Below are positions 41,708 to 42,367 of a DNA stretch of 64,000 nt, piece after piece. Under the pieces are notes generated by a model, which did not search any database, was not told where the DNA came from, and worked only from the letters and a program-made list of their open reading frames with translations. How positions within the stretch are numbered: the first letter of the stretch is position 1; the number at the start of each line of letters is the position of its first letter. This DNA comes from a phage, in the sequence record NC_135731.1; one strand, 5' to 3'. The position numbers were made by a program, and so were the translations under genes.

Positions 41708-42210
41708 AGCTGCCTCCTCTTCAAGTTATAGAAAAACTCACTGTATCGCTTTGTAACGAGCTTTTCTATCAAACTGGTGCGATTGCCTTACTTGGTATAG
41801 TTTATATGGCTGTGGAGCGATTTAGGGGCCTCATTGTCCGTTTCCACACATAAACTTTATCCAAACTCGCTCGGGAGGCTCTCAACCGACTCCTTACGGC
41901 GCTGGCAAGCTTTCGTCGGTGGTCCACATTAGTGCTCGGCCTTTGGCCTGCGCTATCGCTTCGCTCCCACACATGTTAACAGACCTGCATGTATGCACTT
42001 CTGTTATTGTGTGCACTATGGAGGCCAGGCATCTCGCCCCTCGTAGGCGAGTGCCAATGAAGGGCCGACACTACCTATAGAATGTAATAAATTTAAAACA
42101 TGGTACTTAGGATCTAGTATATTCTACATAAGTTAAGTATATGTACTTAGTACCATAAGTACTAGATCTTTTATTTTTTATTATTTAGTTATTTTAGTTA
42201 TATTCTTTAT

Positions 42211-42292
42211 GTGTCCGTATCACGGACAGTTAGTGTCCGTATTACGGACAGATGTGTCCGCGTGACGGGCAGTAGTGTCCGTATCACGGACA
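42211..42292. repeat. array of four direct repeats, each an 18-19-bp palindrome TGTCCGT-N3/4-ACGGACA (iteron/operator-like)
   Basis: copies begin at about 42212, 42234, 42255 and 42276 (period 21-22 bp); third copy degenerate (TGTCCGCGTGACGGGCA); isolated half-site TGTCCGT at 41835..41841; adjacent AT-rich block 42080..42210. Confidence 0.8.
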
Positions 42293-42367
42293 GTTAATAG
42301 TTTCTGTTCCATGGTGAACATAAAACATACAAATCCTTATAGTACAGATATTTAAGTTTTTACTGGT

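Follow-up and report, generated by a model that had tools for sequence, protein, structure and literature searches.

The 64,000-nucleotide stretch of phage DNA from sequence record NC_135731.1, hereafter called the window, contains a 660-bp gene-free stretch (positions 41708-42367) that is probably a replication origin of the phage; judged from sequence comparisons, this reading is given a probability of about 0.6. The stretch carries four phased palindromic repeats (iterons) and an AT-rich block, and it lies next to the gene of a 116-amino acid (aa) protein with a helix-turn-helix (HTH) domain of the winged-helix type, which very probably binds the palindromes. All genes around the gap are on the minus strand of the window.

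The phage is a Vequintavirus of the rV5 type. Phages of this type are widely isolated and have found use in controlling E. coli O157. Over 1.2 kb at the locus the sequence is 100% identical to Escherichia phage phiWec196. The 118 matching records are nearly all rV5-like phages of the genus Vequintavirus; 117 of them are 90-99% identical, and the weakest falls in the 80-90% band.

The first-pass annotation of this DNA had described a gap with no open reading frame (ORF) of 60 aa or more, four phased palindromic direct repeats, an AT-rich block with palindromic content, a GC-rich structured stretch and an adjoining gene for a small HTH protein, all of which proved correct. It had also offered a replication origin and a master operator as equal options. 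Here the origin stands and is now favoured by the comparative evidence, and the equality is given up. The origin is preferred because the same array occurs elsewhere in initiator genes, usually with a drop in GC content past it and, in three loci, with a helicase or loader gene next; because the 116-aa protein is a distant homologue of initiator domains; and because one related contig replaces the protein, the sites and the AT block together. The architecture, conservation, homology, joint replacement and base-pair covariation described below are direct observations, from which binding, melting, origin activity and the function of the GC-rich stretch are inferred.

The iterons

The four iterons, TGTCCGT-N3-ACGGACA, are located at 42212-42228, 42234-42250, 42255-42271 and 42276-42292 and have no strand assignment. 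As direct repeats they extend over 42211-42296 with a spacing of 22, 21 and 21 bp, which corresponds to about two helical turns. The array is the sole sizeable tandem repeat found in the 64 kb by Tandem Repeats Finder, the other match being a 29-bp simple repeat with a score of 42 (52800-52828). The search for further palindromes that had been suggested for the whole genome was run on the window, allowing up to three mismatches, and yielded two weak extra sites against a chance expectation of 1.7. In existing annotation the repeats appear merely as 'repeat_region' in a few GenBank records.

The locus was aligned with up to 15 relatives, 12 of them full-length, which comprise cultured phages and assemblies with an HTH protein down to 86% identity. 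Every full-length relative examined has kept the four repeats. Among the relatives the repeats differ pairwise by 0.025 and the AT block by 0.04, compared to 0.02-0.05 at codon positions 1 and 2 of the two flanking genes and 0.12-0.16 at their third positions; the repeats and the AT block are thus conserved to the same degree as codon positions 1 and 2. The highest pairwise difference of the locus, 0.145, is that of the spacer (42293-42367, no strand assigned) which separates the HTH stop codon from the iterons. The first iteron begins 76 bp past the stop codon, at a position equivalent to codon 142 of the HTH gene.

The third copy of the iteron (TGTCCGCGTGACGGGCA) is imperfect. The G in its ACGGGCA arm is private to this genome, and the equivalent change is found in a neighbouring copy in relatives. 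Changes of a single arm from TGTCCG to TGCCCG hit different repeats in different genomes, a pattern more in keeping with tolerated half-site changes than with an obligatory hairpin.

Three public short-read assemblies of rV5-like phages (L006, L011 and L012) end at or just after the array, and the four repeats seem to break assemblies, an effect common with repeats.

The AT-rich block

Past the array lies the AT-rich block (42081-42211, no strand assigned), the proposed DNA-unwinding element. Its GC content is 17-25%, compared to 43% for the window; the two 60-nt bins after the array have GC fractions of 0.17 and 0.25, and the 40-nt minimum is 0.07. An A-rich tract on the gene-sense strand (42170-42210) contains the direct repeat ATAACTAAA twice and is followed by a long imperfect palindrome with arms at 42085-42109 and 42156-42180. 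A further inverted repeat is formed by 42100-42110 and 42146-42156. The DNA fold of 42070-42300, with the four iterons included, has a z of -6.1.

The GGTACTTAG motif of the block was considered as a general promoter motif and rejected, since it shows no enrichment elsewhere in the window. The AT-rich word (G/C)ATATACT(T)AA is found at 42132-42143 and also in the 13-kb plasmids discussed below (L068, ~13000-13100) and in two unrelated array-bearing contigs (L061:1230-1262, and L057 downstream of the array). In each case it sits in the AT-rich part after the iterons, and it may be due to chance or may be a shared unwinding or host-factor motif.

The 116-aa protein

The protein encoded at 42368-42718 on the minus strand is proposed to be the origin-binding protein, in a form consisting of the DNA-binding domain only. 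Pfam matches it to DUF6945 with 29.2 bits (cut-off 28) and to HTH_36 with 24.9 bits (cut-off 25). It belongs to PHROG 12838 and also matches PHROG 8102 (E 7.5e-6), and both are named 'replication initiation protein'. The same GenBank label on the protein itself is annotation by transfer. When the 116-aa family was compared by hhalign with a profile of 11 array-bearing initiator N-termini, the two aligned over the helix-turn-helix and the wing with a probability of 93.5% (E 2.2e-7). The protein is thus a distant relative of these domains, and the sequence matches, remote as they are, are consistent with each other.

The ORF is intact in all of the at least 118 genomes, and its changes by codon position are 0.036, 0.047 and 0.163. 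Among solved chains, the uncharacterised 4RO3 is nearest in sequence (E 1.7e-5); initiators of the RepA_N type and CodY are among the non-significant matches. An AlphaFold2 model with a pLDDT of 47, derived from a shallow alignment, has short N-terminal elements, three helices and two strands, a predicted secondary structure compatible with a winged helix.

The family appears confined to the genus. The protein route into IMG/VR yielded no relatives. A word-based search of 5.8 billion protein clusters and an exhaustive HMMER search of 1.8 billion representatives yielded no close relatives outside the genus; the matches were relatives of at least 86% identity from rV5-like contexts and winged-helix proteins near E 1e-4.

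Joint replacement of protein and sites

The locus L073, part of a 137-kb Vequintavirus-like viral contig, was reached via an 18-nt core of the GC-rich element that lies on the far side of the AT block. Its phosphoesterase flank is 89% identical to 43192-42756 of the window, and from 42069 leftwards, through the GC-rich element, the leader and the gene for the 192-aa protein encoded next downstream, it is 84% identical. Everything between (42755-42070), that is the HTH gene, the iterons and the AT block, is replaced as a unit. The replacement protein has 143 aa, is 27% identical to the HTH protein of the window (E 3e-6) and matches PHROG 8102 (E 3.9e-6); it has no match in the cultured-phage collection. 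From its stop codon on there are about five palindromes of a different sequence, TCTGATRCA-N4-TGYATCAGA, followed by further hairpins and an A-rich tract.

L073 is a relative which keeps the flanking genes and lacks the TGTCCG repeats, a combination that the first-pass annotation had listed as evidence against its proposal. The repeats are not merely absent from it, having been swapped together with the protein. To judge from this comparison, such a joint exchange marks the protein and the sites as a cognate pair. An AT-rich tract was exchanged along with them, which argues that the AT block is part of the same functional unit, and the gene, the iterons and the AT block (42755-42070) are accordingly regarded as one exchangeable unit.

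A second case is found in L081, part of a 169-kb viral contig from IMG/VR with 40% GC, which comes from an unrelated large phage and has the same layout as the window. Its winged-helix-only ORF encodes 120 aa (L081:4082-4444). Four TGTCCGTTCACCGGACA-type sites begin 3 nt past the stop codon and are followed by AT-rich direct repeats and then by a GC-rich hairpin. Among the comparison loci, L081 alone has this domain-only design.

The same core in other contigs

Public contigs were scanned for two adjacent TGTCCG-N5-CGGACA sites. The pattern was found in 36 metagenome, 11 genome and 19 viral contigs, only three of this total being rV5-like. Of the metagenome and genome loci at least 14 have the array within an ORF, as do 16 of the 19 viral ones; at a 17th viral locus, L081, the ORF stops 3 nt short of it. 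These arrays consist of 2-7 sites, mostly at a spacing of 20-25 bp, in ORFs of ~130-420 aa, some of which are cut at contig ends. The encoded proteins have an N-terminal winged helix and match Pfam HTH_36 and PHROGs 270, 8102, 391, 345 and 678, which carry the name 'replication initiation protein' or 'O-like'. In loci where the position of the domain could be determined, the array starts ~15-60 codons past it. In L022 and L020 the initiator gene is followed by one for a DnaB-like helicase, in L045 by one for a DnaC/IstB-like loader.

The 60 nt past the array, in the direction of the gene, are below the GC content of the contig in 16 of the 17 viral initiator loci measured and in 10 of the 12 from metagenomes and genomes; the drop is at least 10 points in about half of the loci. 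Short direct repeats specific to the element are often present in these 60 nt. The GC fraction after the array is 0.32 in phage lambda, compared to 0.49 for the whole, and 0.17 in the window, compared to 0.43.

Not every match to the pattern is of this kind. Six loci (L021, L025, L040, L047, L050 and L064) adjoin a gene for an IS256-like transposase, a label given by eye from the sequence of the ~460-aa product in high-GC contigs, and several others are two-site arrays in high-GC genomes. The TGTCCG motif alone is not diagnostic because of such unrelated matches; it is the context that is diagnostic.

The N-termini of the array-bearing initiators (L019-L057) are mutually only 15-30% identical, yet all adjoin the same iteron core. 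In contrast, the L073 protein, 27% identical to the HTH protein of the window, uses a different core. The question arises how initiators with an identity of 15-30% recognise one and the same site.

A possible course of initiation

Just upstream of the HTH gene there is a sigma-70-type promoter on the minus strand (42753-42782), TTGACA-18-TATTTT with a TG, which scored 10 of 12 matches in the promoter scan and is the annotated P76 of rV5. The HTH gene is probably expressed from this promoter, and its transcripts probably continue through the repeats and the AT block; no terminator-like site was detected between 39800 and 43900. In rV5 the replisome is of the T7 type and includes a primase-helicase resembling T7 gp4 (PMC3606486).

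In the proposed mechanism, this early promoter would express the 116-aa winged-helix protein and at the same time send transcription through the origin. The protein, probably as a dimer, would then occupy the four phased iterons. The bound array might wrap or stress the DNA and, with the help of transcription, open the AT block in the manner of the lambda O-some. Finally, the phage primase-helicase would enter at the melted AT block without an adaptor of the lambda P type. Loading of this enzyme without an adaptor could explain why a C-terminal domain is dispensable in the 116-aa protein.

Alternative explanations

Several observations weigh against a replication origin. The HTH_36 score is just below the cut-off, so that the similarity of the 116-aa protein to initiator families is weak, and winged helices of regulators (CodY, MarR and GntR) match it weakly as well. 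The protein ends shortly after the predicted wing strands and has no C-terminal domain that could recruit a helicase or a loader. Neither the 116-aa family nor the array-bearing initiators are detectably related to lambda O (hhalign probability <1% each). The label 'initiator' of the comparison proteins comes from PHROG names and adjoining helicase or loader genes, not from experiments, and the IS256-like and two-site loci dilute the value of the motif. The isolated half-site reported earlier at 41835-41841 did not hold up: of the 12 relatives whose sequence extends over it, 9 have ATGGACA in place of ACGGACA, and its presence is probably due to chance. The GC-rich element is separate from the cassette and not part of the swappable origin unit. 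Phages with a T7-like replisome can also start replication from promoters without any initiator protein.

In the main rival reading, the gap would be a multi-site operator or roadblock instead, in which a dimeric HTH regulator coats the four sites just past its own gene and throttles read-through from the early promoter, the AT block being incidental and the targets being the 192-aa gene, its neighbours and the tRNA cluster beyond them. This is considered unlikely, although a single small winged-helix domain with weak matches to CodY, MarR, GntR and LexA_DNA_bind would serve such a regulator, dimeric repressors suit palindromic sites, the sites lie between co-oriented genes without a predicted terminator, and the exchange of protein and sites in L073 fits a repressor and its operator as well as an initiator and its iterons. 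There is nothing obvious to repress, however, because no sigma-70-like promoter overlaps the sites: the scan, which did not extend to phage-specific promoter types, found none on the gene strand in 41708-42367, and the sole candidate on the plus strand (42315-42343) lies within the most variable spacer. An operator also leaves unexplained why the AT block is as conserved as the sites and swapped together with them, why the same core arrays are found in unrelated elements inside initiator genes near helicase or loader genes, and why the order of domain, iterons and AT-rich DNA recurs in most of the initiator loci measured. A decaying remnant of an acquired O-like initiator gene, its 5' part surviving as the small ORF and its iterons now non-coding and non-functional, would account for a layout that matches a lambda-type gene with a stop codon ahead of the iterons, and for the peptides of the VRDTD type in one frame through the repeats, which are similar to linker peptides of intact initiators. 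The repeats and the AT block are, however, under purifying selection in at least 118 genomes; this selection, the excess of third-position changes in an HTH ORF that is everywhere intact, and the occurrence of an independent cassette of the same design in L073, and of the same design in L081, make such a remnant improbable.

Packaging (pac) or partition-type sites bound by the HTH protein are a still poorer explanation. Repeated protein-binding sites are typical of pac and centromere-like sites, and the neighbouring GC-rich element is common to satellite-like plasmids that could need the packaging signal of a helper; these plasmids, however, share only the GC-rich element and not the iterons, no terminase or ParA-type gene is nearby, and in a lytic phage of 137 kb partition would serve no obvious purpose. 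It is very hard to sustain the idea that the palindromes act as RNA hairpins in the 3' untranslated region of the HTH mRNA, with a role as stabilisers or processing sites. Each repeat could form a 7-bp hairpin, and the region is probably transcribed and has no predicted terminator. The TGCCCG arm in one repeat of most relatives, however, creates a C-A mismatch on the transcribed strand; the arrays elsewhere lie in coding sequence, in shifting frames and in an orientation tied to nothing but the initiator gene; and phasing at ~21 bp is a feature of duplex DNA.

The GC-rich structured element

On the far side of the AT block lies a GC-rich structured element of ~220 nt (41861-42080, minus strand) with 50-56% GC. 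It is outside the swappable cassette, the homology with L073 starting at exactly 42069. In hairpin P1, 42066-42062 is paired to 42027-42023, and 42055-42045 to 42039-42028. CACACA (42013-42008) and TGTGTG (41973-41968) form the closing stem of a variable hairpin, and in hairpin P4 ACCGAC (41920-41915) pairs with GTCGGT (41890-41885). Among relatives the element has indels of 18 and 3 nt; the 18-nt deletion shortens the central hairpin in rV5 and Murica and keeps the closing stem.

In two blocks, the element is 82-83% identical to unannotated DNA in five small plasmids of E. coli, namely NZ_CP020521, CP035869, CP148565 and CP178698, which are ~13 kb each, and CP043822 (39.6 kb, with three copies of the match). 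Both blocks are present in one plasmid and the second block alone in the other four. Between phage and plasmid two hairpins keep their pairing through five double substitutions, for example ACCGAC/GTCGGT versus GCTGCC/GGCAGC and CTCGCC/GGCGAG versus CTCTCC/GGAGAG. In a structure of 25 pairs, 99% of the cells are paired and five changes are compensatory, all of them from a single phage-plasmid comparison; none of 500 shuffles reached five, and slid controls gave 0-1. RNAalifold applied to 13 phage-only sequences gave zero compensatory pairs and a different 3' fold. The lack of covariation in the phages alone is attributed to the low diversity within the genus, and covariation appeared once a plasmid copy was added. 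One pair is A-U, G-U or G-C across lineages and another is an invariant U-G; because these fit the minus strand alone, the fold appears to work on this, the gene-sense, strand.

Searches for a known counterpart were negative. Rfam at gathering thresholds gave nothing beyond tRNAs for the window and the region, the best sub-threshold match being rli43 with 23 bits against a cut-off of 100, and the plasmid copies have no Rfam match. A second copy of the element is absent from the window and from the initiator loci according to nhmmer. A TGTGGAC resembling a DnaA box and a GCGAAGC mini-hairpin were examined as conserved features and rejected, both being changed in L073.

The plasmid loci are L066 and L068, which belong to NZ_CP020521.1 (the whole 13,689-bp plasmid), together with L067 and L069-L071; they carry the label 'non-mobilizable'. 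The fully annotated plasmid encodes a major capsid protein, a tape-measure protein, a weak O-like initiator and a tail-type protein with 50% identity to one of rV5; its non-coding DNA amounts to ~3 kb and contains iterons of its own, AT-rich 45-bp repeats and the GC-rich element. In NZ_CP020521 the element lies downstream of the plasmid's own iteron set (CGGTAAATATTTCCG-type) and of the 45-bp repeats, and the other plasmid copies also have iteron-like repeats of their own upstream of it. These plasmids look like unrecognised satellites or mini-relatives of Vequintavirinae.

In phage and plasmids alike, conserved minus-strand hairpins lie beside iterons and AT-rich DNA. The element is previously undescribed and outside these phages was found only in the small phage-like plasmids, and it would be either a discrete structured transcript or a hairpin signal similar to the single-strand initiation (ssi) signals of plasmids, in the latter case on the strand that would be the lagging-strand template of a leftward fork. 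A wider and distinctly tentative proposal is that it represents a new cis-acting RNA or single-stranded DNA signal, common to rV5-type phages and to satellite plasmids of Vequintavirinae, which might serve as a handle onto the helper machinery for priming, helicase entry or packaging, and that a domain-only initiator with external iterons constitutes a distinct exchangeable origin type of large lytic phages. The common structured element is in any case a lead linking rV5-type phages to possible satellites.

Other features of the locus

From right to left the genes are those of a PNK-like ATPase, a metallophosphoesterase and the HTH protein (42718-42368), followed by the 660-bp gap, the gene of the 192-aa protein (41707-41129), three small genes and a cluster of seven tRNAs. 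Two large early transcription units diverge at ~43.75-43.83 kb, 1.4 kb from the repeats. In the description of rV5, GC skew revealed only transcription switches and the origin was left unplaced; one of the four skew switches (66,675-66,725) is at the divergent promoters, 1.4 kb from the cassette (PMC3606486).

The 192-aa protein (41129-41707, minus strand) is specific to the genus, matches only its own PHROG, of unknown function, and is conserved together with the GC-rich element in L073. The region upstream of its gene (41708-41860, minus strand) consists, by sliding diversity, of a variable part (41862-41774) and a conserved leader with a ribosome-binding site (41788-41714). The largest ORFs in 41708-42367 are of 56 and 53 aa. 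The former, ORF78 of rV5, was rejected as a gene since its variable columns are distributed 10/12/12 by codon position, without a third-position bias. In Mydovirus and a Salmonella phage, reached via the phosphoesterase, the genes are arranged differently and a counterpart of the region is missing, which precluded comparison.

A second gene-free, GC-rich gap (40268-40610, up to 59% GC) lies between genes for 80-aa and 113-aa proteins. It has several hairpins and a strong sigma-70-like promoter at its 3' end (40321-40293) and is conserved, with a pairwise difference among relatives of 0.047; it has no Rfam match, no match in E. coli genomes and no similarity to the first GC-rich element. At 39262-39360 on the minus strand there is a 99-nt tRNA-like gene for which ARAGORN reads a four-base anticodon (atcc) and which is annotated as tRNA-Lys-TTT or 'tRNA-OTHER' in other records; it may contain an intron or be unusual in another way. 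Under the name 'Campylobacter phage' (host C. jejuni) there are eighteen records (MG0656xx) with 97-100% identity to rV5-like phages of E. coli at this locus, and their host assignment or naming looks doubtful.

Comparison with known systems

The closest parallel is the origin of phage lambda, which was read directly for this comparison. It has four 18-bp dyad iterons at a spacing of 20, 24 and 23 bp, starting from codon 117 of the O gene, with an A-rich tract on the sense strand next to them. Lambda and the window thus have in common four iterons, each 17-18 bp long and built as a dyad of 6-bp arms around a 5-nt centre, at a spacing of ~20-24 bp, and a low-GC, A-rich sense-strand tract past them; early transcription crosses the lambda origin and probably also the one proposed here. 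In the window the A-rich tract is followed by the long imperfect palindrome; the lambda origin has a short palindrome after its tract. In lambdoid phages the N-terminal domain of O and the iterons co-vary, to which the exchange in L073 may be likened. The differences are that the lambda iterons lie inside the O gene, whereas those of the window are 76 bp outside the gene (those of L081 are also external); that lambda O has 299 aa and recruits P-DnaB, whereas the window protein has 116 aa and no C-terminal domain; and that the iteron sequence is TCCCTC in lambda and TGTCCG in the window. The 116-aa protein has no Pfam Phage_rep_O match. The system would work like ori-lambda but stand outside the Phage_rep_O family, since lambda O is not detectably related to this protein.

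The plasmid RSF1010 has an oriV with iterons, an AT-rich region and hairpin single-strand initiation signals (ssiA and ssiB) that are read by a dedicated primase. These hairpins are a possible analogue of the GC-rich element beside the AT block, where priming is suggested purely by analogy. The RSF1010 iterons are direct repeats bound by monomeric RepC and differ in this from the palindromes of the window. No sequence relation was found. The transcription-dependent origins of T7 and T4 have, like the window, a promoter upstream of an AT-rich unwinding element; unlike the origin proposed here, they are not known to need an iteron-binding protein.

The initiators of the HTH_36 and PHROG 270-8102 type (L019-L057 and L074-L091) share with the window the iteron core and the order of winged helix, iterons and AT-rich DNA, and their phasing is similar. 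They differ in their size of 250-420 aa, in their C-terminal regions and in having the array inside the coding sequence. The literature search found no experimental study of these initiators with in-gene TGTCCG arrays and no paper defining a Vequintavirus origin or transcriptome. As a mark of origins in many uncultured phages, the TGTCCG-N5-CGGACA core offers a simple means of origin annotation in metagenomic phage genomes. If the gap is an origin, a precise cassette of 700 bp whose binding protein is named opens a direct way to map the origin, to engineer it and to study host range and replication.

An iteron origin with a winged-helix initiator is of a well-known kind. To our knowledge, what is new compared to the systems above is a protein reduced to the DNA-binding domain, iterons external to its gene, the exchange of both as a cassette, and an iteron core common to very divergent initiators.

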